DNA of 64,000 bases, taken from contig CAZDQS010000002.1 of NCBI GenBank assembly GCA_964507855.1, positions 91,284-155,283 of the forward strand. Direction: 5' to 3'. Below are positions 14,475 through 37,478 of this stretch, piece by piece. The DNA comes from an uncultured Candidatus Saccharibacteria bacterium (lineage in GTDB: Bacteria > Patescibacteriota > Saccharimonadia > Saccharimonadales > CAZDQS01). Both the position numbers and the translations under genes were made by a program. Positions within the stretch are counted from its first letter, which is position 1. Every line of letters begins with the position of its first letter. Under the pieces are notes generated by a model. It saw only the letters and a list, made by a program, of their open reading frames with translations. It searched no databases and was not told where the DNA came from.

Positions 14475-14550
14475 TGTCATATTATATCATTTCGGGCTAT
14501 CATTCGCTACTGGCTCTGGTACCGCCTAAACCAGCCAAAGATTAACTGTG

Positions 14551-14862
14551 TTATTTCGAGAACTTGGCAACAAGATAGCTTATGACTCCCGTTACAATCC
14601 AGGTTAGGACAACGCCGATTACTACTTTAGAGTTTTTGAATAGCCGTTTGTCAATTTGTTCATCAGCATATTCCTGAACCTTACGCATAAACGGTACAGT
14701 TTCTGTGTATTCTTCAATAAGTTCCTTGGTGCGGGCGCGGAACTTCTCTTGTTGTAATAAGCGTGAAGCTTTCTCTACGATGACATCACTGGATGTTGTA
14801 GGCTGCTCGAGCAGAGTGTCAACGGGCAGAATGTCATCGGTTGGCTTTTTTTTCTGAGGCAT
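14551..14862 (-). CDS. phage membrane protein (C-terminal TM helix)
   Basis: 103-aa ORF in a tightly packed same-strand gene string; hydrophobic C-terminus VVIGVVLTWIVTGVISYLVA. Confidence 0.5.
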   Translation of the reverse strand: MPQKKKPTDDILPVDTLLEQPTTSSDVIVEKASRLLQQEKFRARTKELIEEYTETVPFMRKVQEYADEQIDKRLFKNSKVVIGVVLTWIVTGVISYLVAKFSK

Positions 14863-15088
14863 TATTAATCTCGTCTACTCGTCGCATTAGGGCAATCGCA
14901 ACTCGGAGAACTTCCTCGAGGTTAGTGAGATGGAAGTTTTGCTGTAATTGTTCCAGCTCCTCTAAAGCTCCATTGGTAAAAGCGACGGTGTATACTTCTT
15001 TGCCGTCTTCATCCGTGGTGCTACGTTGTCCTTTTATAGGCATACCCATATCATACAACAAGTTCAAGATTGCATGCTGCTTTTTCAC
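14834..15088 (-). CDS. hypothetical phage protein
   Basis: 84-aa ORF, contiguous with neighbours on the same strand. Confidence 0.5.
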   Translation of the reverse strand: MKKQHAILNLLYDMGMPIKGQRSTTDEDGKEVYTVAFTNGALEELEQLQQNFHLTNLEEVLRVAIALMRRVDEINNASEKKANR

Positions 15089-15400
15089 CTATTCACTCAG
15101 TCCGGGTATCTCTGCCTCTAGCTCATTCATCATCAGGTTTACATACCACTCTTGGGTTTGGTCGTCGGGGTACGGGTCAATGCTCTTTGGGAAGTGCCGC
15201 TCCTCGAGGGCTTGCAGCAGTTCCTCCGTTACCCTCACACCAAGTAAGTTGCCCTCGTCCGTCCGTAGCTCAACGTGGTTCAGGTGCGCCCATGCTTCGC
15301 TAAAGCGGCGGACACGGGTATTGCCGTAGTGGAAAGTGATACCTGCGGTTTCTATCGTGGGGCTTACCCACTCGCCATTCTCGTTTATTCGTTCACCCAT
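15089..15400 (-). CDS. hypothetical phage protein
   Basis: 103-aa ORF abutting the next gene with no gap. Confidence 0.5.
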   Translation of the reverse strand: MGERINENGEWVSPTIETAGITFHYGNTRVRRFSEAWAHLNHVELRTDEGNLLGVRVTEELLQALEERHFPKSIDPYPDDQTQEWYVNLMMNELEAEIPGLSE

Positions 15401-15588
15401 TCTATGCCGACCTCCTCGGTGAAAAGGTTATCGTTTAAGGTATTGAGCTGTTCGAGTAGCAGGTCTATCTTCTCCCATGCTTCACGGCGCACGACATTGC
15501 CTGTGTCGGGGTCGATGACAAACTCCCGCTGCTCGTCCAGCAGACGGTAGATAATTTGCTTTTCCAGTGACGCTTCTAGCTGTTTCAT
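15385..15588 (-). CDS. hypothetical phage protein
   Basis: 67-aa acidic ORF overlapping its neighbours by a few nt. Confidence 0.45.
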   Translation of the reverse strand: MKQLEASLEKQIIYRLLDEQREFVIDPDTGNVVRREAWEKIDLLLEQLNTLNDNLFTEEVGIEWVNE

Positions 15589-15875
15589 CGTCCGTATATC
15601 TTCCTGCGCTTGGTGGCGCTTAAATATATATCTGCTTCTTCTATGGCGTGTAGCATGACTTCATGGCTCGGCTTGATTGGCGGTGCTTCAGTGGCATGGC
15701 GTTGCTCATGGAGTCGCCGACAGATGAGCCGTTTGTTTTCTTCCAAGTTACGAAAGGTACTCTCTATGGACGTCGGGTAAGCCGAACGCGGCCAATAGTA
15801 GTGGTCAACATCCTCTTTGCACCCAACCTCGTAGTATTTGCACTCCGGGCTTGGATTGCAGGGGATGCGTTCCAC
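15585..15875 (-). CDS. hypothetical Cys/His-rich phage protein
   Basis: 96-aa ORF (CNPSPECKYYEVGCKEDVDHYYWPR...CRRLHEQRH); possible metal-binding fold. Confidence 0.5.
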   Translation of the reverse strand: MERIPCNPSPECKYYEVGCKEDVDHYYWPRSAYPTSIESTFRNLEENKRLICRRLHEQRHATEAPPIKPSHEVMLHAIEEADIYLSATKRRKIYGR

Positions 15876-15878
15876 TGG

Positions 15879-16079
15879 CTATTTCCTGTTTCTTTTAAGC
15901 CAGACGGACAAACCTTGCACCGCACCGCCTGCCAGTGCCGTGAGCGCATCGTTAACGGTCATTTCACCGTCTATGCCAGCCAGTGCCAGTAAGAGCATCC
16001 CACCGCCAGCTAGAAAGCCCACAATGGCCTTCTGGTTGCCTGCGATGATGAATATCATTGCCCTGCGTAGTAAATACAT
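15879..16079 (-). CDS. putative holin (two TM helices)
   Basis: 66 aa with two hydrophobic segments and a basic C-terminus (WLKRNRK), next to the endolysin. Confidence 0.5.
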   Translation of the reverse strand: MYLLRRAMIFIIAGNQKAIVGFLAGGGMLLLALAGIDGEMTVNDALTALAGGAVQGLSVWLKRNRK

Positions 16080-16964: not shown

Positions 16965-16965
16965 G

Positions 16966-17310: not shown

Positions 17311-17934
17311 TTAGGCTGCTTCAGTTTCCGCTACTAGATACCCGTGGAAGAAATTTGTTTCTGCACTAGTGCCGAGTCCCATAGAGTAGGATTGAGTATG
17401 GCCGATGAGGACGGTGACGTAGTCGCCCGCTTCCAGCTCTAGCAGCGCCGATACTCCGACAAACATGGGTTGTGTGTTGCCATCGCTGTTGCGATTGCGG
17501 TCTCCGTACTTCACCCGCGAGCCGTTTTTATACAGATGCATATACACGATGTCGCCCGTCACCGCCGAGGCGTAGCTGCCAGCCTCAAAGTAGTACGTCC
17601 CAGCAATCGGCGCGGTATACCGTCCGGTAGAGGTGTCGAAGTCGCTGTTTGGGTCAAATTCCACGGCATTATAGACCACCGGCTCAAGAGTACTGGAATT
17701 TGGAACGCTGGAAGAGCTGGCACGATAGGCGCTGAACCTGTAGGGATTTGTCCATTTTTTTGGAGTTACTGAGCCGTCAGCTAGTTTTGAGCCGTCTATC
17801 GCAGCATTGGCAGCGATATTTGAATTATCAAGACTACCATTGATTTCATTAACAATGGTGTTTATAGGCGTGTTGTATTGTGAGACGGTTGCAGCCGACC
17901 CGTCAGAAGGAAGCGATACACTAATGTTACCCAA
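17311..17934 (-). CDS. tail fibre / receptor-binding protein with a C1q-like C-terminal head
   Basis: TTG start at 17934, 8 nt after GGAGAC in the conserved late leader. C-terminal RFSAY...VVYNAVEFDPNSDFDTSTGRYTAPIAGTYYFEAG matches the C1q/TNF-like signature. Confidence 0.6.
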   Translation of the reverse strand: MGNISVSLPSDGSAATVSQYNTPINTIVNEINGSLDNSNIAANAAIDGSKLADGSVTPKKWTNPYRFSAYRASSSSVPNSSTLEPVVYNAVEFDPNSDFDTSTGRYTAPIAGTYYFEAGSYASAVTGDIVYMHLYKNGSRVKYGDRNRNSDGNTQPMFVGVSALLELEAGDYVTVLIGHTQSYSMGLGTSAETNFFHGYLVAETEAA

Positions 17935-17948
17935 GGCAAGGTCTCCGA

Positions 17949-17976
17949 CCTGCCCGACGTTATAGTCATTATACCA
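17949..17976 (-). promoter_or_regulatory. phage late promoter and leader, copy 1
   Basis: Minus strand reads TGGTATAAT-GACTATAACGT-CGGGCAGGTCGGAGAC. Confidence 0.6.
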
Positions 17977-18279
17977 TTTTTGACATGGTAATATAAGGAT
18001 GCCCAGGTTCCGGTTCTTCCGGTCTTTCCCCTGGGCTTTTTTAGTACAAAGAAAAACAGCCCTTAATGGATGATGAAAGATTCCGTTTAACGCATGTCTG
18101 CGACAGTAACCACATTCGTTACTGATGAATCCCATACTGTCCGAGCTGTTTTGTAAGGTAGTATCTTTCCTTTATACCTTAACCTTACAACACACATATT
18201 AGCATAAGTAGTATAATTTGTCAATAACTTTATAGCATTTATGCTTGTATATTATCTTACATTATGGTATTGTTGCGCC

Positions 18280-18864
18280 ATGAATCAGTTTATTATTAAG
18301 AATAAGCTTGTTGTAACCGTAATTACGGGATTGATCGCCCTGATTGGCTTTAGTGCGTACATAGTTACCTCTAATGTCCTTGAAATGCCATCTGAGGCGC
18401 AAGTACAGAGTTCCACCACTGGATATAGCGGTTTAACAGTATCTGATAGCCCAAGTTCAACTTCCTCACAGCAGGAGTCCACTCCTGAACCAAATACACC
18501 TGTAACGACTCCCGTAGTAATTAGCCAAATGGATATACAGGAGCCTCAGGATGCTCCAGAAAGCACCTATCAGCCGCCAACAACGCATAATGAAGAACTG
18601 CCCAAAATAGACCGCTCTGCATACATACAGGCATGCAATGCGTCTAAAGATGCGGATATTGACTACAATCGCGCCTTGTATAACGCTGAAAAGGCGAATC
18701 ATACACGGAAACTTGAACAAATCGGTACAGAGTGGCGAAGTAGAGGTATGGGATTCAGTGGCGGCTATGAGCAAGCCAAGCAGAACGAAATAACCCGTCA
18801 CAATAACGCTTTAGCTGCTTTGGATGCTCAACTAGCGCAACTCAAGACGAAAGTCTGCGCTTAG
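18280..18864 (+). CDS. opposite-strand moron: membrane-anchored S/T/P-rich protein
   Basis: The only plus-strand prophage gene. Start MNQFIIKNK, then TM helix VVTVITGLIALIGFSAYIV, an S/T/P-rich linker and a Q/A-rich C-terminus. Confidence 0.5.
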   Translation: MNQFIIKNKLVVTVITGLIALIGFSAYIVTSNVLEMPSEAQVQSSTTGYSGLTVSDSPSSTSSQQESTPEPNTPVTTPVVISQMDIQEPQDAPESTYQPPTTHNEELPKIDRSAYIQACNASKDADIDYNRALYNAEKANHTRKLEQIGTEWRSRGMGFSGGYEQAKQNEITRHNNALAALDAQLAQLKTKVCA

Positions 18865-20813: not shown

Positions 20814-21553
20814 TAGAATGTCCCCCAGAATAGCGGAGAATAAGTCTGAAACACACGGCGGTCGTAATCAGCATTACCTTTACCAAAGAAAGGATCACTG
20901 ACAAGTTGGTTGTAGACTTGCTGTGAGTATGCGTCTCCTGCTTGGCCCATCTGATACAGCACGTCCCTTATGTCTTGCCCGGTCTGCTGTGCGTAAGAGG
21001 CTGCTGAAATAGGCCTTCCTCCCGTGTCGCTGAAAGCGAAGCCTCCATCCTGTTTGCGGGAAATTGTAGGTCCGGTTTGTGCGGCCTGCGTACGTCCAAA
21101 AGAAGGGCGTGGGGTTGCTGCTGCCGCTTGTCTACGGGCTTCAGCTAATCGCTCCTGCTCCGCTTGCCACTGATCGAACCGCTGCTGTTCGTACTGTCGT
21201 ATTCCGAGGGCTTGGTTCTGGCGGCGTTCCTGAATACCAAGAATCGCATCCTCTAAGCTCATGGCTTGCTCTCTGCCGGACTGTCTGAGACGTGCTAAGG
21301 CTGGCAAGTATTCAGTGGCGGTGTATCGAGCTTGCTCGCCAAGAGGAATACCGGAAAAACCCAATCCCCTTCTTCGTGCGCCGGAAAGTATGCTGTCAAA
21401 GGCTTCATTCTGGCGAGCCTGCAAACCTTGTTCTTCTGCTCTTATCTGATCTGGAAGCGCAGATTGTCGCTTTCGGACACTTTGAATCTGCGGCTCATAG
21501 ACGCTGTTTATTTCGCTTATGATTTGATCGAGTGATCTGACTGAGGGCTGCAT
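20813..21553 (-). CDS. hypothetical virion protein (Q/R-rich coiled coil)
   Basis: 246-aa ORF behind late promoter copy 2; ATGA overlap with the downstream gene. Confidence 0.55.
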   Translation of the reverse strand: MQPSVRSLDQIISEINSVYEPQIQSVRKRQSALPDQIRAEEQGLQARQNEAFDSILSGARRRGLGFSGIPLGEQARYTATEYLPALARLRQSGREQAMSLEDAILGIQERRQNQALGIRQYEQQRFDQWQAEQERLAEARRQAAAATPRPSFGRTQAAQTGPTISRKQDGGFAFSDTGGRPISAASYAQQTGQDIRDVLYQMGQAGDAYSQQVYNQLVSDPFFGKGNADYDRRVFQTYSPLFWGTF

Positions 21554-21564
21554 AATACCATATG

Positions 21565-21592
21565 CCTGCCCGTGTTACCTACGATTATACCA
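21565..21592 (-). promoter_or_regulatory. phage late promoter and leader, copy 2
   Basis: Minus strand reads TGGTATAAT-CGTAGGTAACA-CGGGCAGG. Confidence 0.6.
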
Positions 21593-24949: not shown

Positions 24950-25595
24950 AGCGGTTTATCCTCATGGTTGTTGGACGGCCTACTTGCGACTGGCTGTATT
25001 TGACCACTAATTTCTGAAGCAACTCGTCATAGCGGTTGAGATGTATTCCGGCTTGGTCGTAGTTGTCTTTGACTTGCAGGACTCTCGCAGCCGCTCCCGA
25101 CACCAAGAGTTCTTCAAACTCACTTGGCAATTCCGGCACGTCATTTCCACCGCTTAACATGGTTGGTTTTTTGTAGTATCTAAGCGTCAGGGTATAAGCG
25201 TTGTCCGGCTCAGGGAAAACCCGTATTGTTTCAGCATAGGTGTACCATTCCGAAGGAACGCCCCTTGGATTCACCGTCTCATTATCGGCATCTGGATGTA
25301 GCCGGTCTATCGAACGGACGTTGTTGTATGGAAGGACTTTCTGGTGCCCGTCAGAAGTAAGAATCAGATCGACCGCTTGCACGAAGTTGGCCGGAAGTCC
25401 GGAACCGTTGGTAATGTCAGACACACCTGCCGTTAAAGTGTAGTCCTGCTCCGTCTGCATAAACGGAAGGCGGTATTCGTTGTAGACATCGTTCAGCGTG
25501 TCATTGAGGTAGTTGGTTATCTCAGAGGTGGAATAACCCGTGTCACGGACTCGCTGCTGGACTTTCGTGATAATGTCCGAAAGTTGATAAGACAA
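24924..25595 (-). CDS. tail adaptor / tubular-A-like protein (by position)
   Basis: TTG start at 25595, 8 nt after GGAGACC in the conserved late leader; 223 aa. Confidence 0.5.
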   Translation of the reverse strand: MSYQLSDIITKVQQRVRDTGYSTSEITNYLNDTLNDVYNEYRLPFMQTEQDYTLTAGVSDITNGSGLPANFVQAVDLILTSDGHQKVLPYNNVRSIDRLHPDADNETVNPRGVPSEWYTYAETIRVFPEPDNAYTLTLRYYKKPTMLSGGNDVPELPSEFEELLVSGAAARVLQVKDNYDQAGIHLNRYDELLQKLVVKYSQSQVGRPTTMRINRYAVGKTHF

Positions 25596-25609
25596 GGCAA
25601 GGTCTCCGA

Positions 25610-25636
25610 CCTGCCCGTGTTGGGTATATTATACCA
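25610..25636 (-). promoter_or_regulatory. phage late promoter and leader, copy 3
   Basis: Minus strand reads TGGTATAAT-ATACCCAACA-CGGGCAGGTCGGAGACC. Confidence 0.6.
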
Positions 25637-25637
25637 C

Positions 25638-28292: not shown

Positions 28293-28902
28293 TGACCGCC
28301 TCGCTAAGTACTAAGTATTCATGCCCGATACGGTTGCTCCAGCCATCTTCGTAGTTTCCTATGCCAAAATGATACCGCAGCGTCGTTTCATCGTTCTTTA
28401 GGATGTACCACGCACCGTTCGTGTCGGTAAAACCTACGTACTGCGTTCCATCCGGTGCGTTGTCGAGGTCTTGCGCCCGAAAGCATGTCAGATCGACGGT
28501 ATCAGGCTTCTTGAGCGCATCAAGTAGTGGAGAAAAGTTAATTTCACGTTCTTCGATGACGACTTTTGGCTGCGGAACGTTTACGACCGGCGAAGGGAGT
28601 TTTATCCCTTTAATCGACTCTGCGATTTGCTCAATTGCCCCGATAATAGGCGTAAGATCTACTTGAACGGTTTCGATAGCGTCTTTAATGTCTCGGAGCT
28701 GATCGCTTTGGTGCTTATTAAGTGTCCGGCCGTCTTTGAGCAGCGCATCAAGCTTCTTCACTATTCCGGTAAGGTCGGTTGGGCGTTTTGCAAGAGATTT
28801 CCGCAGCTCTTTCAGATGAACGTTAATATCATCAAACACCTCTTGGTGCTGTGCTTCTTTCTGTGCTGTCCGTTTTGAACGGATGGTTTCAAGATGATCC
28901 AA
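28276..28902 (-). CDS. hypothetical structural protein
   Basis: 208-aa ORF with a TTG start directly behind late promoter copy 4. Confidence 0.5.
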   Translation of the reverse strand: MDHLETIRSKRTAQKEAQHQEVFDDINVHLKELRKSLAKRPTDLTGIVKKLDALLKDGRTLNKHQSDQLRDIKDAIETVQVDLTPIIGAIEQIAESIKGIKLPSPVVNVPQPKVVIEEREINFSPLLDALKKPDTVDLTCFRAQDLDNAPDGTQYVGFTDTNGAWYILKNDETTLRYHFGIGNYEDGWSNRIGHEYLVLSEAVNAIRS

Positions 28903-28916
28903 GGCGTTATTCCAGC

Positions 28917-28943
28917 CCTGCCCGTGTTAGTAACATTATATCA
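28917..28943 (-). promoter_or_regulatory. phage late promoter and leader, copy 4
   Basis: Minus strand reads TGATATAAT-GTTACTAACA-CGGGCAGG. Confidence 0.6.
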
Positions 28944-29591
28944 TTTTCCCCAGAGATGTTGACGGCTACTGTAGAGATGTGAGCCGTGAGAGCTATGCTG
29001 TGCGGATGCTTCATAGTCCTTGTCGTGTGGAGCTTTACCATTCGACCAATGAAGATGCTCGACAATAGACTCTTTACATCTTGCAAACACCCCTCTGAAC
29101 ATCGCTGTCTCAAACTGCTCAGTTTCGCTGAAGTCATGAACATACTCCGGATGAAACAGGAGGTTATCGCAATCAACACACCCGCCCTGTTCTTCGATGT
29201 ACTTCCGGCTGATTAAAGCTTGTGTCCCGTTCGGGTTTAGCAGGTCATCCGGCACGATAACCGAATAGTCTTTGGTGAGTGCTAAGAGCGGCGCAAGCCA
29301 ATTAGGGTGAAATTTACTGTCGTCACTCCCGGTAAACAAATACGGCTCGGTAGTTTTGCGGTACATGGTATTCATGCGGGTCACGTAGTCAGTGCTCCCC
29401 TCGTCCTCGATGAGCTGTGCGTCCATTTCCCGAATAATCTTCCGTGAGTCCTCATTTTGGGTCATGAAGTAGATTTCATGCTCCTCTGGTGTGGTTTCAC
29501 GGATGTTTTCAATCAACCCTTTAACAAGGTGAGTTCTGTTGAGGTGCGGGATAAGGATAGCTACAGCCATTCCGGATTTTCCAGTGTCCAT
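28941..29591 (-). CDS. GT-A-fold glycosyltransferase-like protein
   Basis: MAVAILIPHLNR...LFTGSDDSKF shows an N-terminal Rossmann-like strand and an acidic DD motif. An alternative start lies at 29570. Confidence 0.5.
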   Translation of the reverse strand: MDTGKSGMAVAILIPHLNRTHLVKGLIENIRETTPEEHEIYFMTQNEDSRKIIREMDAQLIEDEGSTDYVTRMNTMYRKTTEPYLFTGSDDSKFHPNWLAPLLALTKDYSVIVPDDLLNPNGTQALISRKYIEEQGGCVDCDNLLFHPEYVHDFSETEQFETAMFRGVFARCKESIVEHLHWSNGKAPHDKDYEASAQHSSHGSHLYSSRQHLWGK

Positions 29592-30550
29592 TGAACAGTC
29601 CTTTTGAGTGATTCTTCAAATGGAATAGGGTGCGTCCATCCGGCTTGCTTTAGCTTTTCTCCGGACATGGCATAGCGTAAATCATGTCCTGGGCGGGCTT
29701 TGTCTGCGTCCAGCAGTTCGTACTTCAGAGGCTTCCCGATAATCTCTGCAACCTTTTGAGCGATAGTCAGATTGTCGTATTCTACTTCCCCGACAACGTG
29801 GTATTTCGATGGTTCGGTAGATTCCGGGTATTCATTCGGAATAATGTGCTTGGCGATATGCAGGAGGGCATCTGCTTGATTGCGAGCGTGGAGGTAATGC
29901 CGCATACCAGGCTGACCATTTTTAGCGTGTATCTGGACGGTTTCGCCGCCTAGCACCTTTTTCACAATTAATGGGATGTACTTCTCTGAGTCCTGTCGTT
30001 CTCCGAAGATATTCATAGTATTGGTGATGATTATAGGCACTCCGTAGGTTCGCCAATACGCAAACCCTATCGCTTCTTGTGCGGATTTCGAGGCGGCGTA
30101 CGGAGACGAGGGATAGTGCGTATCCCATTCCGAGTGCGCTCCTTCTCTTGCCGGACCATACACTTCATCAGTCGATACATGGATAAACTTGCGGGGCTTG
30201 ATCTCTCTTGCCAATTCCATCATGTACAGCATCAGATTGACGTTGTTTTGGATGAACGGAACAGGATCTTCAATCGAGCGTAACACGTGCGATTCACTGG
30301 CAATATTGATGATGATGTCTATTCTTGGAAGTCGTTTAATAAACACGTCAGAGAACGGAACGGTCAGGTCATGCGTCAGCACCGTTACTCTATCTTTGTT
30401 CTTCTGATAATGTTCGGAGTCAGCGATTCTCTCTCCAACTCCTTTATGACGGAACGATTCAATACAGACAATGTCCCAATCCGTATTGACCAATAAATGC
30501 TCCAGAACATGCGAGCCGACAAAGCCGGACGCTCCTGTTAATAAGACCAT
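29561..30550 (-). CDS. NAD-dependent sugar-nucleotide 4,6-dehydratase (dTDP-glucose dehydratase-like SDR)
   Basis: Motifs TGASGFVGSH and STDEVYG, and SPYAASK matching the YxxxK catalytic motif, as in RmlB-type extended SDRs. Confidence 0.8.
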   Translation of the reverse strand: MVLLTGASGFVGSHVLEHLLVNTDWDIVCIESFRHKGVGERIADSEHYQKNKDRVTVLTHDLTVPFSDVFIKRLPRIDIIINIASESHVLRSIEDPVPFIQNNVNLMLYMMELAREIKPRKFIHVSTDEVYGPAREGAHSEWDTHYPSSPYAASKSAQEAIGFAYWRTYGVPIIITNTMNIFGERQDSEKYIPLIVKKVLGGETVQIHAKNGQPGMRHYLHARNQADALLHIAKHIIPNEYPESTEPSKYHVVGEVEYDNLTIAQKVAEIIGKPLKYELLDADKARPGHDLRYAMSGEKLKQAGWTHPIPFEESLKRTVQWTLENPEWL

Positions 30551-30951
30551 TCTTTTGCCTCCTTATCTTTGGTACTGATGTGTGTAATTGGTAGCGGCCA
30601 GTTGATTGTTAGTGGATTACACCCAAAGTCTCCAGCGGGGTTGTATTCTCCGTCCATTGCATAACAGACAATAGAATCCTCCAACGCCTGAAAGCCATGT
30701 GCGTAACCTTTAGGGATTTCAAAGATGTTCTGGGCGGTGGAGTCTATCACCCGTTCCTCTACCGCACCTGTTTCTAAGTCCATACGTACGTCATAGATTT
30801 TTCCAAACGGAACCCAAACCCACTTTGTGACAAATGGCTCTTGGTAGTGCAGCCCTCGCACGGTTCCTTTCTTGCTAAATGATTGGTTGATCTGCTTGAT
30901 GTCGGCTCGGATAACCTCTCGGAACGTGCCTCTATCATCGTGATGAATCAT
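30538..30951 (-). CDS. RmlC-like cupin (dTDP-4-dehydrorhamnose 3,5-epimerase family)
   Basis: GTVRGLHYQ and YAHGFQAL motifs; 137 aa; overlaps both neighbours. Confidence 0.65.
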   Translation of the reverse strand: MIHHDDRGTFREVIRADIKQINQSFSKKGTVRGLHYQEPFVTKWVWVPFGKIYDVRMDLETGAVEERVIDSTAQNIFEIPKGYAHGFQALEDSIVCYAMDGEYNPAGDFGCNPLTINWPLPITHISTKDKEAKEWSY

Positions 30952-31670
30952 AGTCCTGCCTCCTTGAGACGGTCATCATAGCCTCTATCGGTCATGGTCT
31001 TTTGGTAGTACTCCGGAAAGTCTTTCCAGTTGCTAGTGTTAGCAAACGTCCTGCCTAAGTTTTCAGTCATATGTCCGACAAGATAGCCTCTTGCTTTGAT
31101 CAGACTGGAAAACTGTGAATCTTCTTGCAGAGGACTATTCCGGCCGTCATTCCACATCAGTTCCGGATAGCGCACTCCCTCATCCCACAGTTTCCGGCGG
31201 ATAATGTTCGGGCCGCCGACGCAGCCAGGCCACGGGTTTAGCACCTTGCCGTTAATCTCCATCTCCCGCAGTTTGGCTTTAGGGTCTTCTATGGCCTCAT
31301 GATCGAGTCCTAATTGTCCAAGTTCGGGAATTTTCTTGAAGTAATCGGCGGCGGTATGATCCCATCCCTTCATAAGCTGCATGTCATTATCCAGTCGCAT
31401 AAGATGGGTTGCTCCGGTGTATTCTTTCAGACCTGCTTCCCATGCAATATTTGCGGCCTTGCCAGGATAGTAGTTCTCCGGATTGAAGATAATCTTGTCG
31501 ATTCGTTCCCGCTTCTCATGCCTTTGTAAGTACTCAACCGTTCCATCTGTCGAAGCGTTGTCGATCACCACGAGGTAATACGGCACGTCAATCGTATTCC
31601 AGAAATAGCGGAGTGTTTTGCGGGTATAGGCTAGACGGTTATAGGTGATGAGACATACTAATAGATTCAT
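30948..31670 (-). CDS. family-2 glycosyltransferase
   Basis: LVCLITYNRLAYTRKTL...LVVIDNASTDGTVEYL. ATG at 31670 with a GGAG RBS and an ATGA overlap. Confidence 0.75.
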   Translation of the reverse strand: MNLLVCLITYNRLAYTRKTLRYFWNTIDVPYYLVVIDNASTDGTVEYLQRHEKRERIDKIIFNPENYYPGKAANIAWEAGLKEYTGATHLMRLDNDMQLMKGWDHTAADYFKKIPELGQLGLDHEAIEDPKAKLREMEINGKVLNPWPGCVGGPNIIRRKLWDEGVRYPELMWNDGRNSPLQEDSQFSSLIKARGYLVGHMTENLGRTFANTSNWKDFPEYYQKTMTDRGYDDRLKEAGL

Positions 31671-32482
31671 TCCATGCTCCAATCCACCACAAGGGCTTTC
31701 TTGGGCGCACGTTTACCGAGCTTCTTGCGGATGAGTTTACGGGCGTGTTCTTCACTGGTGTTGATTGTTCCGGAAGGTGTGATAATTTCTACTAAGTTGC
31801 CTTTTGGCTGCACAGGCCAGCTTTTTACCGTATTCAATAGATGGCCTTTGATAACCAGCGTCCATTCCTCTATCTGGTGCGCTCCGTTGTTGCTTCCGGC
31901 TTTGCCAAGGGCTTTGAGTTTGCGCTGTCCAAGAGTCCGAGGTATCTTGTGTATCGGAATATTCCGGCGGTACAGTTCCATACAGAAGTTCACATCATGC
32001 AGCCCATAACCGATAGAGGTTGATCGAACGGGCTGCATCTTCAGGAAGTCTCCATAATTCTTGATGTTCCACTTCACATCGGTACGGAAATACGGTGCGG
32101 TGAGTTCGTCGAACACTTCACGTTTTACGAGCAGACAACCAGTACCGCAGAAGATAACTTGTTTACCAACACTGAATACTGCTCCCCGTCCATTTTCATT
32201 AACTGGATAATCTGCCGTAACTACCGCTTTGTCCTTTTTGAGCATGGTTTGTAAGGTGTTTGGCGGGATAATCATGTCATCTTCTACAAACCACAGATGG
32301 GTAATTTCAGGATTCTGTAATGCTTCTGTAGTGGGAGTTTCAAAACAGTCCGGTATCGGTTTGCGGTGTGCGAAGTAAAACTTGTGCGGTATATCTTTCA
32401 CGTTCTTCAGGACTTCCTCGGCGGTGCGAGAGAACATCAAACCTCTGGAGGGAAGAATAACGGCGACTTTAACGGACGACAT
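31667..32482 (-). CDS. GT-A-like putative glycosyltransferase, paralogue 1
   Basis: VAVILPSRGLMFSRT...FAHRKPIPDCFETPT...WFVEDDMIIP. AAGGAG RBS before the ATG at 32482. Paralogous to the next gene. Confidence 0.5.
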   Translation of the reverse strand: MSSVKVAVILPSRGLMFSRTAEEVLKNVKDIPHKFYFAHRKPIPDCFETPTTEALQNPEITHLWFVEDDMIIPPNTLQTMLKKDKAVVTADYPVNENGRGAVFSVGKQVIFCGTGCLLVKREVFDELTAPYFRTDVKWNIKNYGDFLKMQPVRSTSIGYGLHDVNFCMELYRRNIPIHKIPRTLGQRKLKALGKAGSNNGAHQIEEWTLVIKGHLLNTVKSWPVQPKGNLVEIITPSGTINTSEEHARKLIRKKLGKRAPKKALVVDWSME

Positions 32483-33269
32483 CGTAGCTCCTTCCATCGT
32501 TTAGGTAGGGCTGGTTGTTCTCGTCATACGAGATAAACGGCGGTTTATGCTCCCAAATCTTCACCTTTCGCACCCGATTCAGCGCCCCTCGGAACAGTTC
32601 AGCGTTTTCTTCGGTGATCATGCCGGATACGAGGTCTCTGCCAACTTTGGTTAGTTCGTAAATCTCATGCGCTCCCTCGTTCGTACCCTTGCCGCCTAAT
32701 TGCCGGAGCTTACGTTGTCCGGCGGTTTCCGTCATGACGTAAATCGGCAATCCGGCGCTGTAAAGTAAGAGTCCAAAGCGCAAATCATGCAAACCGTAGT
32801 AGACTTTATCGAGTTTCCGAGGCCAGAAGTGGATGGTGTCAGTATCTATAAACGGGTCAAAGGTTGTGTCGGTTCTCCATACTGGTTGTTCCATCTGCTG
32901 CAAGACTGATTTCGCTACCAACAAGAATCCCGTACCCGTCCAGAACGCCATGCCTTGCGGATCGTGCAGACACGTTGAGTCTCCGTCTTGTTGGAACGGG
33001 TAATCCAGTGCGACGACAGGATAGCGAACAGCGAACATTTTCTTGAGTATCCCTTTGGGGATAATCATGTCGTCTTCGCAGTAGAGAACGGCGTATACGT
33101 CCTTGTCTGCGAGTACTTTTTCAGTTGGTTCGTTAAAAGCTTCCGGCAAAGGCCGCTCGTGAGCAAAGAATATCTCGTAATTAAGTCCTTCAAGTTCGCC
33201 CAGCAGCTCCTCAAAGGTTTCCGAAAACAACAAGCCACGGCTCGGTAGTACTACCGCTAATTTGTCCAC
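32469..33269 (-). CDS. GT-A-like putative glycosyltransferase, paralogue 2
   Basis: LAVVLPSRGLLFSET...FAHERPLPEAFNEPT...YCEDDMIIP, collinear with paralogue 1. Confidence 0.5.
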   Translation of the reverse strand: MDKLAVVLPSRGLLFSETFEELLGELEGLNYEIFFAHERPLPEAFNEPTEKVLADKDVYAVLYCEDDMIIPKGILKKMFAVRYPVVALDYPFQQDGDSTCLHDPQGMAFWTGTGFLLVAKSVLQQMEQPVWRTDTTFDPFIDTDTIHFWPRKLDKVYYGLHDLRFGLLLYSAGLPIYVMTETAGQRKLRQLGGKGTNEGAHEIYELTKVGRDLVSGMITEENAELFRGALNRVRKVKIWEHKPPFISYDENNQPYLNDGRSYDVVR

Positions 33270-33271
33270 GA

Positions 33272-33625
33272 CTATTCTCCAGGTTGGAGTTCTGGATATT
33301 CAGTGCGAAGCTGCTCAATGAGCTTCTTGACCATAATGATGCCGTCCGTAAATTGTGCGACAGTGTTTTTATGCTCGGAGAGGTTGTTATTACCCTTTAG
33401 TCTCAAAGCTTCTTTGTCGCTTTGCTGCAATCGGCGGGCATGAATGACGTTGACCCGCTCCCGCCACGCCTGTGATTCAAGTTCTTCGAGTTGCGCCTGT
33501 AAAAAAGCCAGCTTGCGGAATGGAGTTGGCTCCGCTTCTGCTGGTATGTTGAATTCTTTTACGGTCTCTTTATCGACAGCCAGAGGGTTGTCTATCACTT
33601 TGTATTCTTGGGAGGCATCAGCCAT
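33272..33625 (-). CDS. hypothetical coiled-coil protein, first gene behind late promoter copy 5
   Basis: 117-aa ORF; ATG preceded by GGAG in the conserved leader. Confidence 0.5.
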   Translation of the reverse strand: MADASQEYKVIDNPLAVDKETVKEFNIPAEAEPTPFRKLAFLQAQLEELESQAWRERVNVIHARRLQQSDKEALRLKGNNNLSEHKNTVAQFTDGIIMVKKLIEQLRTEYPELQPGE

Positions 33626-33639
33626 GAGTAATACTCCGA

Positions 33640-33667
33640 CCTGCCCGTGTCAGCCAGTAGTATAGCA
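33640..33667 (-). promoter_or_regulatory. phage late promoter and leader, copy 5
   Basis: Minus strand reads TGCTATACT-ACTGGCTGACA-CGGGCAGGTCGGAG. Confidence 0.55.
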
Positions 33668-33735: not shown

Positions 33736-34608
33736 CTAGTGCTTGAGCACGAAGCCGAAGCCGTCTCGAAGCTCCTTGATGCCGTACAGAACGTCCACGG
33801 TCACCAACCAGCCCAAGTATTCCTGCTTGTACTGAGATTGGGTGCGTGGGGTCTTCTGCATAGCAACAGCGAAGGACTCCTTGTGGAAGAACAGCGAGTT
33901 GTACTCGTCCGTAGCGGTGTCGAGGTACACGAGGTTTTGGCTCATGAACACGTCAGCGCCGTAGATTCGTCCAATCTTACCGTTCTTGATGGAGTTGCTG
34001 TCACCACCTACGCCAAGTGCGTCATAGCGAACGTACTTGTCGATAGCTAACAGTTCCTGCTCACCCTTAGGATGAACAACGATGGAACGGTCAGAGCGTG
34101 GTGCTTTGTTTTCGCTCAGGTAGCGGTTAACGGTCAGAATGAGGTTGTCATTGATAGCCGTACCGTATGCGCCGTAGCCGTCAAAGGCATCGGTCATAGC
34201 CTGTGCGATGTCAGCGTCAATCTTCTCAGCGATTGCGTAAGCAGCCGCCTTCGTGTAGTCGCTTCGCAGGTCATACTGTGCTTGAGTCGCTGCGATGTCT
34301 TCTACTAAGAATGAGCTTTCGTAGTGTTTGTCTATGTTTATGGTTGTTTTTGTTTCGGTGTTGTAGTTCAACGTAACGACAGTGTTCTGCGCCTTCAAGT
34401 TAGCTGAGATTGCAGATACATTCGGGATTTCTACGGTCTGACCCTTGCTCTGAACTTCACGGTCATAGTGTTTGATGAGCGGAAGCAGGACAAGGTTGCT
34501 CTTAACGAACATAAGGACTTCGTTCGCCCATACATTCGGAGCAAATACGTCAGCAGCAGTCGTACCGATGTTTACGTTACCTGAACCATATGCGCCAGTT
34601 GTGGACAT
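33736..34608 (-). CDS. major capsid protein
   Basis: 290 aa, directly after the scaffold gene and followed by its own terminator. N-terminus MSTTGAYGSGNVNIGTTAADVFAPNVWANEV is typical of phage coat proteins. Confidence 0.7.
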   Translation of the reverse strand: MSTTGAYGSGNVNIGTTAADVFAPNVWANEVLMFVKSNLVLLPLIKHYDREVQSKGQTVEIPNVSAISANLKAQNTVVTLNYNTETKTTINIDKHYESSFLVEDIAATQAQYDLRSDYTKAAAYAIAEKIDADIAQAMTDAFDGYGAYGTAINDNLILTVNRYLSENKAPRSDRSIVVHPKGEQELLAIDKYVRYDALGVGGDSNSIKNGKIGRIYGADVFMSQNLVYLDTATDEYNSLFFHKESFAVAMQKTPRTQSQYKQEYLGWLVTVDVLYGIKELRDGFGFVLKH

Positions 34609-34624: not shown

Positions 34625-35377
34625 TTAGTTTCGTGCTGCCATAGCCCGGTTGATAGCGTCATAGTTCTTCCGGAACCATTCCTGGCCGTTCTGCGCTACG
34701 AGCTGGTCAACGTTTTGCGGAGTAATGCTTTGGGAGTTCACGGAACTCGATACGGCATTTCCCCGTGGCACGGCGGCGGTTTGTTTGTGGGCTAAGGACT
34801 GAAGGGCTTCCTTCTTTCCTTGGGACTTCACAGCGTCCAAATTGCTTGCCTTTACCACCGCATAGAGAGCTTCGAGGTCTCCCGCTAGGTGAGGGCGTTT
34901 TACGAGTTCAGCTACCATGTCCTGTTCAAGTTCCCTTGCGTCAGGATGTGCGTTGAAAAAGTCACGAACCGCTTCTTTTACCTCCACACGCTGGACTCGT
35001 TTAAGCAATTCCGGATCTTGTCCGGTAGAATCAGCAATCTGCTCGGCGTACTCGTCTGAAGTATTAGTTAACGACTTCTCTAGTTCGCTGGCTTTTTGCC
35101 GTGTTCGCTGGTACTCCGCATTGTTGTCGTAGGCAATTTTGAGTAGTTTCTGTTCCCTCTCGGAAAGCTGTGAAACGTCCTCAATGCCTTGACCCTTTGC
35201 AAAGCTCTGGAGCTTTTCGTCTATACTGGGTAGTGAATCCTCTGATTCGCCCTGTGTCGATTCGCTCGGTTTATCGGTGGATTGAGATACCGCCGTCTCG
35301 TTGTCGTTCTGAACTGGTAGTGCTGTATCAGCGCCAGTATCTTGAGCGACAGATTCGGTAATGGTTTGTTCTTCCAT
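34625..35377 (-). CDS. scaffolding protein
   Basis: 250-aa acidic, helical, low-complexity protein between portal and capsid. Confidence 0.6.
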   Translation of the reverse strand: MEEQTITESVAQDTGADTALPVQNDNETAVSQSTDKPSESTQGESEDSLPSIDEKLQSFAKGQGIEDVSQLSEREQKLLKIAYDNNAEYQRTRQKASELEKSLTNTSDEYAEQIADSTGQDPELLKRVQRVEVKEAVRDFFNAHPDARELEQDMVAELVKRPHLAGDLEALYAVVKASNLDAVKSQGKKEALQSLAHKQTAAVPRGNAVSSSVNSQSITPQNVDQLVAQNGQEWFRKNYDAINRAMAARN

Positions 35378-35396
35378 CGTAATCCTTTTTCTGTCC

Positions 35397-35433
35397 CCTG
35401 CCCGAATGGGGAGACTAGAATATACCGGGCAGG
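35397..35433 (-). promoter_or_regulatory. variant late promoter flanked by inverted CCTGCCCG / CGGGCAGG
   Basis: Minus strand reads CCTGCCCGGTATATTCTAGTCTCCCCATTCGGGCAGG, upstream of the scaffold gene. Confidence 0.4.
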
Positions 35434-35510
35434 TATAGAAAGTAATCTTTCCGTTTAGTTTTTAAACTAATCCTAGTCTCTCCGTTCTGATAGGTGACAA
35501 TTAGAAAGCT

Positions 35511-35726
35511 TTACCGCCTCCTCTCTGCCACAAGGCTGTCTATGTGGAGTTTCACGGAACGGATTCCTCTCGCCTGCTGTGCTGCGTCTCTGGCGTTTTC
35601 CGGTGTCGTCTCGGCGGATTCATGTCGTGCGGTAATTTCAGAATCAAGCCACTTCATAAACTCCGCTCCGGCTTCGCTTTTTAAGAAGAATGTCTGGTAG
35701 GCTCGTCGTAAGTCGGCAGTTTTCAC
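35511..35726 (-). CDS. hypothetical phage protein
   Basis: 71-aa ORF overlapping the portal stop by 4 nt. Confidence 0.5.
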   Translation of the reverse strand: MKTADLRRAYQTFFLKSEAGAEFMKWLDSEITARHESAETTPENARDAAQQARGIRSVKLHIDSLVAERRR

Positions 35727-37438
35727 AGCATCATCTCCGTAGGCTCTACAGGGTCAAGATGAAACAACTCACCCGTTAGCGGATCAGGTGCTACGTCCAT
35801 CATCGGCTCACCCATGCTTGGATCGGTCATACCGCCAAAACTCATGCCGGGGTCGGTCATTTCAGTAATCGGCTGCACGAGCATGTTCACCTCATCGGGG
35901 TCCAGGTCAAAGGAACGCTGTAAGACCATCTTCTTCAGCTCCACTTGGTTAATATCTTGGTCTCCAAGGAACATAGCCATCAGCTCTTTGGCTTGCATCG
36001 CCTGTTCCCGTTTGTCGTTTTCTATAGTGATGTCGAGCTGTACCCTTGGTTCGTAGTCGCCTTGGAACTCGCTTGGGTCAAATTCTTCCCACCGTGCGCC
36101 GTCCTTGCCAAGAATACGTACCATCATCGGCTCAGTGACATAGAGCTTAATCATCTCGAAGATGATTCTTCCCATCCGGTGGAAGTATTCGTTCTCTATC
36201 TGGGTAATTTTCAGTCCGATTCGCTGTCCAGCTCCGGCTATCTGTGCTTGGATTTCAGTTGCGGTTGTCTTCCCGCCTTCAGCACCAACACCCTTCACAA
36301 TCTCGTTACTAGCGGTCGTTTCCCGTATCTCGTTCTTGATGTTCATGCGCTCGTTAAAGGCATCCGGCGGAATGGGTCGCTGCGGGATAGGCTGGAGTGC
36401 GCCGGCTTCGACCGGATAGGTCGCACCGGGGATGTTCTCGATTTCCTCTAGTAAGTGAGCGTATTTCGGGTCGAGTGTGTACATCTGGTTGAGCGTAAAC
36501 GTCACCGAGTCAATGTTCTGATTAGTGATGTCGTTAAGCAGTTCCTGCTCGTCACCAATAATGTCCACTTCACCTTTTGCGTAAAACAGCGATTCGTCCA
36601 CGTAGTCTCTGGCGGCCGCAAACGGCATAATGCCTTTGGGGAATTCCTCACCGTTCGCACGAGCTTTCGCCTTGAAGTAGTTCTCAGCATCTTCAATCAA
36701 CACAGAACGGTTAGCCACTGATATGACCGTATCCTCAGTCCAGTATTCAATCACCTCTACTTGGTGTTTTTCCGGCTCTTTTACCGTCGAGCCGTACCAC
36801 ATGTCTTTTTCCTGTTTGTCAGTGTTCTCGCCCTGAGAGCCTTCTTTGATTTGGTCGAGGTTTTTGTATTTGGGCTTCATTTCACCCGTTTCGGGGTCAA
36901 TGACTTGAAAGCTTTTTAACTCGTCAATCGTAGTCAGATACCTTCGCCCCATGTATCGGGCGGTTTCCAGGCTCGAAGCCGTCGGGTCAATAAAGAAGTC
37001 CCTGAGAGGCACGTTTATCATCCGTGGATGGTCGCCGTCCCAATAGAAATAGTCCACTCCCACGCCAAGTTTCAGCATGGAGCGGCCAGTGTTGATAACT
37101 TTTATTGAGTATTGATCTTTATCCCAATAGAAATCTACTAAAGCGTTTAAGATGTCAGTTTTCTGGTCTGGCTTCTCTTTTGGCGGGAGGTAGTTGAATT
37201 TCGGCTTCGCTCCAAAGAGTGCGGAAGTCATCGTTTCCACCGTGGAGAATACCATCGGCACGAACGTATCAGTTATCCCATCATACCCACGTTTCACCCG
37301 TTGGTTGTTGTATAAACGGTGGTTATTCTCCCACCTAGTATGCCACGAACCAGCGACGTACTCCCATGCCGCCTCAAAATCTTTCAGTACTGTTTCAAGC
37401 GTGTTTGTCTGCTTTTTAGGAGTGCGGGCTTTAGCCAC
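35723..37438 (-). CDS. portal (head-to-tail connector) protein
   Basis: ~570 aa, directly downstream of terL. GTG start at 37438 behind GGTGGAG in the late leader. Size, position and acidic C-terminus fit podovirus connectors. Confidence 0.75.
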   Translation of the reverse strand: MAKARTPKKQTNTLETVLKDFEAAWEYVAGSWHTRWENNHRLYNNQRVKRGYDGITDTFVPMVFSTVETMTSALFGAKPKFNYLPPKEKPDQKTDILNALVDFYWDKDQYSIKVINTGRSMLKLGVGVDYFYWDGDHPRMINVPLRDFFIDPTASSLETARYMGRRYLTTIDELKSFQVIDPETGEMKPKYKNLDQIKEGSQGENTDKQEKDMWYGSTVKEPEKHQVEVIEYWTEDTVISVANRSVLIEDAENYFKAKARANGEEFPKGIMPFAAARDYVDESLFYAKGEVDIIGDEQELLNDITNQNIDSVTFTLNQMYTLDPKYAHLLEEIENIPGATYPVEAGALQPIPQRPIPPDAFNERMNIKNEIRETTASNEIVKGVGAEGGKTTATEIQAQIAGAGQRIGLKITQIENEYFHRMGRIIFEMIKLYVTEPMMVRILGKDGARWEEFDPSEFQGDYEPRVQLDITIENDKREQAMQAKELMAMFLGDQDINQVELKKMVLQRSFDLDPDEVNMLVQPITEMTDPGMSFGGMTDPSMGEPMMDVAPDPLTGELFHLDPVEPTEMML

Positions 37439-37451
37439 CGATGTAGCTCCA

Positions 37452-37478
37452 CCTGCCCGTGTTGATGGTATTATATCA
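37452..37478 (-). promoter_or_regulatory. phage late promoter and leader, copy 6
   Basis: Minus strand reads TGATATAAT-ACCATCAACA-CGGGCAGGTGGAG, in the 40-nt gap after the terL stop. Confidence 0.6.

Follow-up and report, generated by a model that had tools for sequence, protein, structure and literature searches.

To establish why the virion genes of a prophage in an uncultured Candidatus Saccharibacteria genome should be preceded by one recurrent promoter-plus-leader element, we analysed computationally the 64,000-nucleotide (nt) stretch of contig CAZDQS010000002.1 that contains it (hereafter, the window). An earlier note had described six minus-strand sites sharing an extended -10 box and a conserved initial transcribed sequence, and had suggested that a dedicated regulator acts on them. 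We found that the six inferred late mRNAs begin with the same 12 bases, that these bases are complementary to a hairpin in a newly recognised structured RNA between the portal and scaffold genes, and that leader and hairpin co-vary among related phages, suggesting an RNA-against-RNA dosage control of virion genes conserved across a large uncultured phage family.

Late promoters and their shared leader

Initially, we asked whether the element is more frequent than chance would allow. The motif CGGGCAGG occurs 13 times in the window against 2.0 expected (0 of 100 shuffles reach 13), with ten copies on the minus strand, and TGnTATAAT occurs 7 times, all on the minus strand and all within 14481-37478. 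The observation made in the earlier note was thus confirmed: at each of the six sites an extended -10 box is followed, after 10-11 nt of non-conserved spacer, by (A)ACACGGGCAGG, which corresponds to +1 to about +13 of the inferred transcripts. All transcription start sites (TSS) given here are inferred from spacing.

The first promoter (37436-37478, minus strand, as are the other five promoters, the genes from portal to scaffold and the structured RNA below) has its extended -10 box, TGATATAAT, at 37470-37478, an inferred TSS at 37463 and the motif at 37452-37459, and serves the portal gene, which starts with GTG at 37438; an orthologous promoter is present in most relatives. The second (33623-33667) has the box TGCTATACT at 33659-33667, an inferred TSS at about 33650-33652 and the motif at 33640-33647, and precedes a 117-aa gene (ATG at 33625) in an operon containing glycosyltransferase and epimerase genes. 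The third (28900-28943; box 28935-28943, inferred TSS 28928, motif 28917-28924) precedes a 208-aa gene with TTG at 28902, and the fourth (25593-25636; box 25628-25636, inferred TSS 25621, motif 25610-25617) a 223-aa tail protein gene with TTG at 25595. The fifth (21551-21592; box 21584-21592, inferred TSS about 21576-21577, motif 21565-21572) precedes a 246-aa gene with ATG at 21553, and the sixth (17932-17976; box 17968-17976, inferred TSS 17961, motif 17949-17956) a fibre-like gene with TTG at 17934. As the earlier note had stated, four of the six first genes start with GTG or TTG. The longer ORFs, from 37492 for portal and from 18135 for the fibre gene, run through the promoters and are very probably untranslated in their extensions.

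Several details of the earlier description required correction. The box at 33659-33667 is not TGnTATAAT, and the offset of the motif counted from the TG is 19-20 nt rather than 18-19 nt, that is, 10-11 nt from the last T of the box. Two copies, not one, abut an intrinsic terminator: the fourth promoter abuts the stem at 25665-25640, and the second is directly preceded by the stem at 33716-33692 that follows the capsid gene. The sites at 25720-25728 and 14481-14489, listed as variants, are extended -10 boxes without the motif, each followed by a 70-75-nt hairpin-rich stretch ending in a terminator. The remaining variant, 35397-35433, is not a promoter: what had been described as inverted copies flanking a -10 box are the two arms of an RNA pairing.

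The same design recurs in more than 100 related phage loci and only in front of structural genes. Across these loci plus the prophage, TGnTATAAT was found 130 times on the gene strand against 14 on the other strand, and the seventh nt after the box is A in 99 of 130 cases. None of the roughly 54 extended -10 sites lying more than 2 kb upstream of portal carries the motif, whereas 49 of 53 motif-bearing sites lie at or after portal. The sites look like real sigma-70-type extended -10 promoters without a -35 box, and the +1 to +13 segment looks like a late-specific signal under selection rather than a recent duplication, because the spacer varies while the segment is conserved or co-varies in relatives down to 33% portal identity.

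A structured RNA upstream of the scaffold gene

The portal gene (SU10-type, 35723-37438), the first cistron of the first late transcript, is followed by a small ORF of 71 aa (35511-35726) whose GTG overlaps the portal stop (GTGA); this overlap is kept in 40 of 43 loci, and the small ORF is, on sequence evidence alone, translationally coupled to portal. Downstream lie the scaffold-position gene (34625-35377, 250 aa), the major capsid gene (33736-34608) and the terminator at 33716-33692. Between the small ORF and the scaffold gene, at 35389-35501, we identified a conserved structured RNA, which consists of a lower stem formed by strand c (35498-35482) with c'/b' (35410-35393), a middle stem a (35482-35471) with a' (35420-35411) and an apical hairpin. 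The scaffold Shine-Dalgarno (SD) sequence, AAAGGA at 35388-35383, lies 5 nt after the stem.

Folding of the window sequence gave a minimum free energy of -43.7 kcal/mol (z -3.8). RNAalifold analysis showed compensatory changes at 19 of 22 pairs; 90.8% of cells were paired against 68% in shuffles, and 0 of 500 shuffles reached the observed pairing. A covariance model hit the window with 66 bits and recovered one gene-strand copy in each of 70 of 100 sources (78 against 25 bits), and on 62 distinct sequences 23 of 27 pairs were compensatory. Rfam searches returned no matching family.

The apical hairpin, termed b (35422-35436), reads AUACC-UGCCC-GGUAU, and its segment CCUGCCCG at 35433-35426 is the complement of the late-leader motif. 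A local copy of the leader motif, termed b' (b'/c', 35393-35410; CGGGCAGG at 35404-35397, followed by GGGAC), is masked in the long stem by pairing with c but could alternatively pair with b: the b:b' pairing is 94% paired with covariation at 2 positions, and the unpaired G and C of its GGGC are conserved in 59-60 of 62 sequences. The stop codon of the small ORF lies inside the stem base in 42 of 45 related loci, and its third base co-varies with its pairing partner; in the window itself, however, it lies 10 nt upstream of the stem.

Leader-hairpin complementarity in related phages

Guided by this complementarity, we tested whether leaders match hairpin b of their own genome better than that of other genomes. 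Portal leaders chosen by position alone gave -14.5 kcal/mol with their own b against -11.5 kcal/mol with others (sd 0.45, p<1e-4), whereas a reversed-leader control gave -9.85 against -9.83, and both flanks of the GGG core contributed (p=0.0004 and p<1e-4, from 39 genomes), although these permutation tests treat related genomes as independent. Early promoters averaged -5.9 kcal/mol and 2% reached -14 or stronger, compared with 39% of late promoters. The six window leaders scored -19.5 to -22.5 kcal/mol (-21.9 for the portal leader), whereas the two promoters without the motif scored -4.7 and -5.8; in the window, the complementarity runs for only 9-10 contiguous base pairs.

Co-variation holds even in lineages where GGGC/GCCC has been replaced, as in the leader/hairpin pairs ACACACGACGAG/CUCGUCUGUGU and UGGCGAUGCG/CGCAUCGCCA. 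One related locus, L084, has b = CUCGUCUGUGU and a late leader ACACACGACGAGU (-17.3 against -5.0 kcal/mol, z -5.5). The clade with b = CCUGCCUU has leaders AAGGCAGG, while its b' keeps GGGC. A more distant clade, clade C (33-35% portal identity), which the covariance model did not detect, has leaders AAAUGGCG(A/G)UG(C/U)G, with three compensated anti-leader variants about 2170 nt after the portal start, and the same leader occurs on its other late promoters. Because b also pairs with b' and the leaders resemble b', part of the leader:b signal is not independent, but L084, the GCCU clade and clade C argue that the leaders track b itself.

A proposed RNA-RNA control and its alternatives

Taken together, these data suggest, with moderate confidence, the following reading. 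The six sites are host-RNA-polymerase extended -10 promoters that split the virion-gene region into six operons, and each late mRNA begins with 5'-AACACGGGCAGG, directly in front of its SD sequence. Hairpin b would pair with these leaders, within the same transcript for portal and between molecules for the other five, although b is made once per portal-scaffold transcript against six leader types, a stoichiometry that fits a cis role for the portal leader better than a trans role. Pairing over +1 to about +13 would abut the ribosome-binding site and most likely limit translation, or change the stability, of the portal and minor-structural operons, whereas scaffold and capsid, translated from a site downstream of the structure, would be exempt. 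The decoy b' would normally be locked into the stem by c, and a ribosome terminating at the small-ORF stop codon in the stem base should open the stem and free b' to compete for b. Our analysis shows the promoter-like anatomy, the RNA structure, the complementarity of leader and hairpin with its co-variation, and the placement of the stop codon; that the pairing occurs in vivo, whether it represses, activates or stabilises, and that ribosomes gate it are inferences.

The earlier interpretation, that the conserved segment serves a dedicated regulator, was only partly supported: the promoters, the late-specific signal and the untranslated ORF extensions hold, but an activator, antiterminator loading site or discriminator is not supported. 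DNA-level action is not supported either, as the same sequence also occurs inside a transcript as a strand of a covarying RNA structure, and what is conserved is complementarity to a hairpin rather than a fixed sequence.

The alternative that survives best, although unlikely, is that one sequence-specific protein, phage- or host-encoded, recognises the motif, either as RNA (a translational operator on every late leader and on b') or as DNA (an operator at each late start site, keeping strong late promoters silent in the lysogen), with hairpin b only masking or mimicking the site. The GGGC core is nearly invariant in most clades, the motif suffix is homogeneous within a genome, strong constitutive-looking late promoters in a prophage need silencing, a helix-turn-helix (HTH) protein is encoded at 40455-40763, and the P22 scaffolding protein is reported to autoregulate its own translation. 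However, no early or regulatory protein is conserved across the family, in which only the head module is; the leaders co-vary with b, including one case with a bulge and G.U-type differences, and the core is fully replaced in three lineages; a DNA site at b would have no promoter to act on; and b sits in a hairpin whose own stem co-varies.

Somewhat less likely as the main function, though compatible with our reading, is that the long stem is an RNase III-type processing site, like the T7 intercistronic hairpins, whose cleavage would separate the portal mRNA from the scaffold-capsid mRNA and give the latter a 5' end resembling the primary late leaders, the shared 5' sequence then serving stability. 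The helix has 22 base pairs with regularly spaced 1x1 mismatches and lies between cistrons, the motif lies at its 3' foot, and the host RNase III gene is in the window, but this explains neither why the apical loop is the complement of the leaders and co-varies with them nor why the stop codon is built into the stem base.

It is also doubtful that the initial transcribed sequence acts on transcription itself, through promoter escape, start-site choice, a promoter-proximal pause or loading of a Q-, put- or RfaH-type antiterminator, its resemblance to the scaffold-leader RNA being incidental. The motif does sit at a fixed distance from the -10 box (gaps of 9 nt at 45 sites and 10 nt at 28 sites), the leader is purine-rich and the late operons are long. 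Yet only 1 of 6 initial transcribed sequences has a -10-like TAnnnT pause element, no ops-like core lies in the leaders, no NusG, Q or sigma homologue was found, and in other clades the sequence is replaced by unrelated ones while complementarity to b is kept. Finally, a promoter cassette copied around the genome by concerted evolution or module shuffling, without function in its transcribed part, is very unlikely: the copies are very similar within a genome, and promoter-plus-stem-loop cassettes mediate module shuffling in T4-type phages, but here the spacer differs in every copy while both flanks are kept, and the design persists down to 33% portal identity with compensatory changes in a distant partner.

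Among described systems, the c4 antisense RNA of phages P1 and P7 (immI operon; Rfam C4 family) is likewise made from the same operon as its target and reportedly acts through short loop sequences complementary to sites in the mRNA, controlling genes on that transcript (Citron and Schuster 1990). The RNA described here had no sequence or structure match to it in the Rfam search; its antisense element is an internal hairpin of a late structural mRNA, its targets are the extreme 5' ends of several operons, each fixed by a promoter, a decoy and a stop codon are built in, and it would control virion genes rather than immunity. In RNA phages (the MS2 Min Jou interaction), translation of one cistron opens a distant pairing that controls another start site, and in sRNA regulons one short sequence pairs with many leaders, which freezes the seed in evolution; here the phage is a DNA phage and the putative regulator is part of an mRNA rather than a free sRNA. 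T7 late transcripts also share a start (GGGAGA) and carry structured intercistronic hairpins, but that start is part of the phage RNA polymerase promoter, whereas the present promoters are host-type and no phage RNA polymerase is encoded. Stoperators are likewise many asymmetric sites, in one orientation relative to transcription, in short intergenic gaps of a temperate phage, but they are DNA sites at which the repressor gp71 blocks elongation, whereas the present sites have no linked repressor, sit at +1 to +13 and co-vary with an RNA hairpin. The start-associated sequences (SAS/ESAS) of cluster K mycobacteriophages are short asymmetric motifs repeated 11-19 times per genome in one orientation just upstream of gene starts and conserved across subclusters, for which a role in translation has been proposed (PMC3203893). 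SAS lies 3-7 bp from the start codon, contains the SD, occurs in non-structural genes and is not tied to promoters, and its associated inverted repeats do not support RNA pairing, whereas the motif described here is tied to the inferred transcription start, lies 5' of the SD, marks structural operons and has a covarying RNA partner.

A late-specific promoter class in the prophage and its relatives

To place the repeated elements in context, we first delimited the surrounding prophage, which spans about 35 kb on the minus strand of the window, from a tyrosine integrase (12932-13783) to a tRNA-Gln gene (48566-48639), and is flanked by host genes for leucyl-tRNA synthetase, RNase III, Mur ligase and a 2,597-aa LVIVD-repeat protein. 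The last is a single minus-strand ORF with LVIVD repeats and beta-propeller matches (1498-9291), immediately outside the prophage. A low-GC stretch next to the integrase (9364-13783; 0.44-0.45 against about 0.52) holds an Mrr-type restriction endonuclease domain protein (10761-11723) and unannotated ORFs, and looks like cargo or a second island at the prophage end. The virion module reads terminase small and large subunits, an SU10-type portal, a 71-aa ORF, a scaffold-position gene and the major capsid gene, followed by tail genes. The operon behind late promoter 2, directly after the capsid gene (28941-33625, minus strand), encodes two family-2 glycosyltransferases and an NAD-dependent sugar epimerase/dehydratase that recur in 22-25 of 31 long related loci and could glycosylate the virion or modify the host surface. 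The only plus-strand gene inside the late region (18241-18864, 207 aa) has a hydrophobic N-terminus and a Ser/Thr/Pro-rich linker and fits exactly between two minus-strand genes, with a TTGACA-17-TAATAT promoter-like site nearby on the minus strand (18224-18196); it is a possible moron or superinfection-exclusion gene. A search of the phage collection found no near-identical DNA; the nearest record in it, an uncultured Caudoviricetes sequence, has 33% portal identity, and isolated phages reach only about 22-26%. The portal nevertheless has more than 1,100 relatives in metagenomes, many on contigs of 36-40 kb, and we retrieved 132 related loci, 120 of them distinct, each with up to 10 kb on either side of portal. 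Related contigs of 17-38 kb are binned with Limisphaerales, Oleiharenicola, Saccharimonadales and Methylotenera metagenome-assembled genomes, an assignment that is not reliable.

The earlier note had described six minus-strand sites that share an extended -10 box followed at a fixed distance by a conserved transcribed sequence, and this observation held. In the window, CGGGCAGG occurs 13 times against 2.0 expected, and TGnTATAAT occurs 7 times, always on the minus strand and inside the late region. Of the six sites, five are TGnTATAAT and one is TGCTATACT, and each reads as an extended -10 box, a 6-7 nt non-conserved spacer, then (A)ACACGGGCAGG. Across the relatives plus this prophage, TGnTATAAT is found 130 times on the gene strand and 14 times on the other, and the 7th base after the box is A in 99 of 130 cases, preceded by a pyrimidine, which is the signature of real sigma-70-type start sites. 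With transcription starts inferred in this way from sequence alone, the motif occupies about +5 to +12 of the RNA, and the leaders are only 24-27 nt long. An extended -10 box followed 9-10 nt later by YGGGY occurs 106 times on the gene strand against 27 on the other, whereas only 37 of the 130 consensus promoters have GGG at that place. Motif-bearing promoters are absent from the early side (0 of about 54 sites lying more than 2 kb upstream of portal) and concentrated at portal and downstream (49 of 53); it is therefore a late-specific promoter class, conserved well beyond this genome. An exact-motif scan of IMG/VR for TATAAT-N6-8-ACACGGGCAGG gave 8 contigs with one hit each, which is chance level.

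Two extended -10 boxes in the window lack the leader motif. One, TGGTATAAT, is followed by a 76-nt stretch that folds into two hairpins (z -3.5) and ends in the intrinsic terminator directly upstream of late promoter 4 (25638-25728, minus strand), a candidate small RNA or very short peptide. The other, TGATATAAT, is followed by a strong SD, a 5-codon ORF (MYTSH) and a terminator hairpin with a U-run (14403-14489, minus strand; 72 nt, z -2.4), upstream of a 64-aa ORF next to the integrase, a candidate small RNA or leader peptide. We considered these two short RNAs as antisense regulators of the late leaders, but neither is complementary to the leader, with only 4-5 bp by eye against the motif, and their promoters give -4.7 and -5.8 kcal/mol against the apical hairpin 'b' described below. 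Related locus L015 shows the same pattern at 6599-6685 (an extended -10 box, a hairpin of about 45 nt with a U-run, then a second extended -10 box), and 'promoter, short terminated RNA, promoter' units may therefore be a family habit. In L068, a relative from the divergent clade C, a run of about eight consensus extended -10 boxes lies within 1.3 kb (8100-9432), each followed by GC-rich hairpin-like sequence rather than an obvious ORF, and may be a cluster of small RNA or tRNA genes.

A structured RNA between the small ORF and the scaffold gene

The earlier note had listed inverted copies of the motif at 35397-35433 as a promoter variant; they lie between the 71-aa ORF and the scaffold gene, and our analysis shows that they belong to an RNA structure. 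The same arrangement recurs in relatives with different sequences. The window sequence folds into a long irregular hairpin (-43.7 kcal/mol, z -3.8), and in an 18-sequence alignment RNAalifold found 22 pairs, 19 of them with compensatory changes. In this alignment 90.8% of cells are paired, against 68% in column shuffles and 41-49% when partners are slid. A covariance model built from the alignment finds one gene-strand copy in each of 70 of 100 sources, at the same place every time, with scores reaching 83 bits against 22-31 bits for the opposite strand. On 62 distinct sequences, 23 of 27 pairs show compensatory change. Rfam, including its C4 antisense RNA and phage cis-regulatory families, has nothing like it: the only hit at gathering score was tRNA-Gln, and searches of 35300-35600 and 25560-25800 in E-value mode, the latter covering the short RNA upstream of late promoter 4, gave only chance-level hits or none.

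Along the RNA, the stop codon of the small ORF is followed by strand c (GUC.CC..UC), strand a, an apical hairpin whose loop and 5' arm carry the anti-motif b (AUACC-UGCCC-GGUAU in the window), strand a', and strand c', which contains b', a copy of the leader motif (G-GG-C-NGG-N-GAC); a gap of 5-20 nt then precedes the scaffold SD and AUG. Strands b and b' can also pair with each other (8 bp, 94% paired, with co-variation at two positions), and that pairing excludes the long stem, because a' abuts b'.

The structure is also linked to the reading frames around it. In 40 of 43 distinct loci the small ORF starts on the portal stop (ATGA, GTGA or TAATG), and in 42 of 45 loci its own stop codon ends 1-6 nt inside the structure; the window is a mild exception, with the stop lying 10 nt before the stem. 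The third base of that stop codon pairs with the last base of GAC/GAU and co-varies with it (G-C 12 times, A-U 6 times). We also asked whether the small ORF might encode an RNA-binding protein, but it had no Pfam or PHROG hit, and a homologue search returned only the query itself.

Co-variation of the late leaders with hairpin b

To test whether the leaders and the structured RNA evolve together, we compared each leader with the hairpin of its own genome and with those of other genomes, in tests that treat related genomes as independent samples although they are not. The 3 nt after GGGC in the promoter-proximal copies agree with b' of the same genome at 2.43 of 3 positions against 1.64 when permuted (p=0.0002). 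Leaders (+1 to +18) against the b region of their own genome give -19.2 kcal/mol, against -16.1 for other genomes (p<0.0002), whereas strand c, which we considered as a trans partner of the leaders, gives no own-genome signal (p=0.47). Portal leaders picked by position only give -14.5 against -11.5 kcal/mol (sd 0.45, p<1e-4, 35 distinct pairs), and a reversed-leader control shows no difference. Both sides of the GGG core contribute, including the 5' flank, which has no counterpart in b'. Leaders of early promoters do not match b (-5.9 kcal/mol, with 2% reaching -14 or stronger), whereas 39% of late candidates reach that value. In the window the six leaders give -19.5 to -22.5 kcal/mol, although the contiguous complementarity there is 9-10 bp. 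A crude presence/absence association between b and the motif was confounded by locus length. We also considered leader hairpins that hide the start codon, since five of six window leaders can pair GGGC with GCCC or GCCU near the start; the pairing is not enriched in relatives (mean z -0.24, n=61, and -0.07, n=64), and we rejected it as a family feature.

The most telling cases are lineages in which the otherwise near-invariant core itself has changed. In the related loci L084/L085, b reads CUCGUCUGUGU, and a late leader behind a perfect TGGTATAAT box reads ACACACGACGAGU, giving a duplex of -17.3 kcal/mol against -5.0 with foreign hairpins. In a second group, the GCCU clade, b reads CCUGCCUU and the portal leaders read AAGGCAGG, although b' keeps GGGC. 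In clade C, which has 33-35% portal identity and is not detected by the covariance model, portal and other late promoters start with AAAUGGCG(A/G)UG(C/U)G, and the complement sits in a hairpin 2,166-2,185 nt after the portal start, again between a coupled small ORF and the scaffold gene, in three compensated variants (GAUGCG/CGCAUC, GGUGUG/CACACC and GGUGCG/CGCACC). What selection keeps is therefore the base-pairing, not the words. Several leaders read ACGGGCGGUG and several b hairpins (in loci L102, L072 and others; the window's b hairpin lies at 35422-35436) read ACACNCGCCCGUGU, which resemble, respectively, the universal 16S primer 1392R/1406R and the 16S rRNA 1400-region it targets; the match carries a one-base indel and may be coincidence, and the core-switched clades argue against a ribosomal RNA role.

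Proposed mechanism, alternatives and related systems

Guided by these results, we propose that hairpin b pairs with the first ~13 nt of the late mRNAs, intramolecularly for the portal leader, which is the most widely conserved target, and intermolecularly for the others. Because the duplex would end at the SD, the likeliest effect is reduced initiation on the portal and minor-structural operons, although stabilisation of 5' ends, or activation, is not excluded. Scaffold and capsid start downstream of the element and lack the tag, so they would escape. In this view, a ribosome that has read the portal gene and the small ORF would have to unwind strand c and part of strand a when it terminates, releasing b' as a local competitor. 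Our computational analysis establishes the promoter-like anatomy, the late class, the RNA structure, the co-variation of leader and anti-leader and the placement of the stop codon in the stem; that transcription initiates at these sites, that the duplex forms in vivo and changes expression, and that ribosomes unmask b' are inferences. The earlier note's interpretation, a dedicated regulator acting through the start of every late mRNA, was partly supported.

Further still, though we consider it unlikely on present evidence, the element may be a ribosome-gated RNA circuit that meters virion-protein dosage. The portal mRNA's own 5' leader would be captured by hairpin b once RNA polymerase has transcribed it, about 2 kb downstream, shutting off further initiation, and each ribosome that finishes the portal gene and the coupled small ORF would melt the stem at the embedded stop codon, freeing decoy b' to displace the leader and license another round of initiation. 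The same hairpin, made in step with scaffold-capsid mRNA, would also titrate the identical leaders of the other five late operons, and one RNA element would thereby set the ratio of minor to major structural proteins.

Of the alternatives, a protein that reads the motif would explain the near-invariant GGGC, but it has no conserved candidate gene: no early-region protein of the window recurs in relatives, clustering of ORFs from 31 long loci found only structural genes shared, and the HTH protein encoded at 40455-40763 is not conserved. Nor does such a protein explain co-variation with the complement, one case of which involves a bulge. RNase III processing of the long stem is plausible and compatible with our proposal, as the helix has 22 paired positions with 1x1 mismatches and lies between cistrons, but cleavage would be inferred from this shape alone and does not account for the loop. 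A transcriptional role, including the antiterminator loading site raised in the earlier note, lacks the defining features of Q, put or ops systems (TAnnnT lies within +1 to +30 in only 1 of 6 leaders, no ops-like core GGCGGTAG with up to 1 mismatch falls in any of the six, and no Q-family or KOW/NusG protein was found by Pfam or PHROG among the prophage ORFs scanned) and does not survive the core switches.

The closest working analogy is the c4 antisense RNA of P1 and P7, which is made from the same operon as its target; antisense or long-range RNA-RNA regulation is here an analogy rather than a sequence family, and the complementarity maintained by compensatory change fits it. The closest descriptive analogy is the SAS/ESAS repeats of cluster K mycobacteriophages, whose function is still unknown, a 13-bp motif GGGATAGGAGCCC located 3-7 bp upstream of start codons, containing the SD, in non-structural genes (PMC3203893). 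The element is a member of neither: it has no match to the C4 family in Rfam, and compared with SAS/ESAS its sequence differs, its motif ends 11-18 nt before the start and lies 5' of the SD, and it is found only in structural operons. The motif is also unrelated in sequence to L5-type stoperators.

How a tailed phage makes 12 portal subunits but hundreds of scaffold and capsid subunits from neighbouring genes, often on one transcript, is largely unexplained outside a few model phages. The sequence offers a concrete candidate RNA mechanism, a new structured RNA family that is not in Rfam and a promoter class whose transcribed part would be an addressing tag for that RNA, in a large phage family with no cultured member, and it could provide a compact module for tuning translation ratios. 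It also gives annotation rules for true portal and fibre starts, operon boundaries and late promoters. Automatic gene calls extend the portal gene (37438-37492; 589 aa in public collections, against 571 aa from the GTG at 37438) and the fibre-like gene (17934-18135) through their own promoters, whereas relatives start the portal gene at the homologous GTG/ATG, 19-27 nt after the inferred transcription start.
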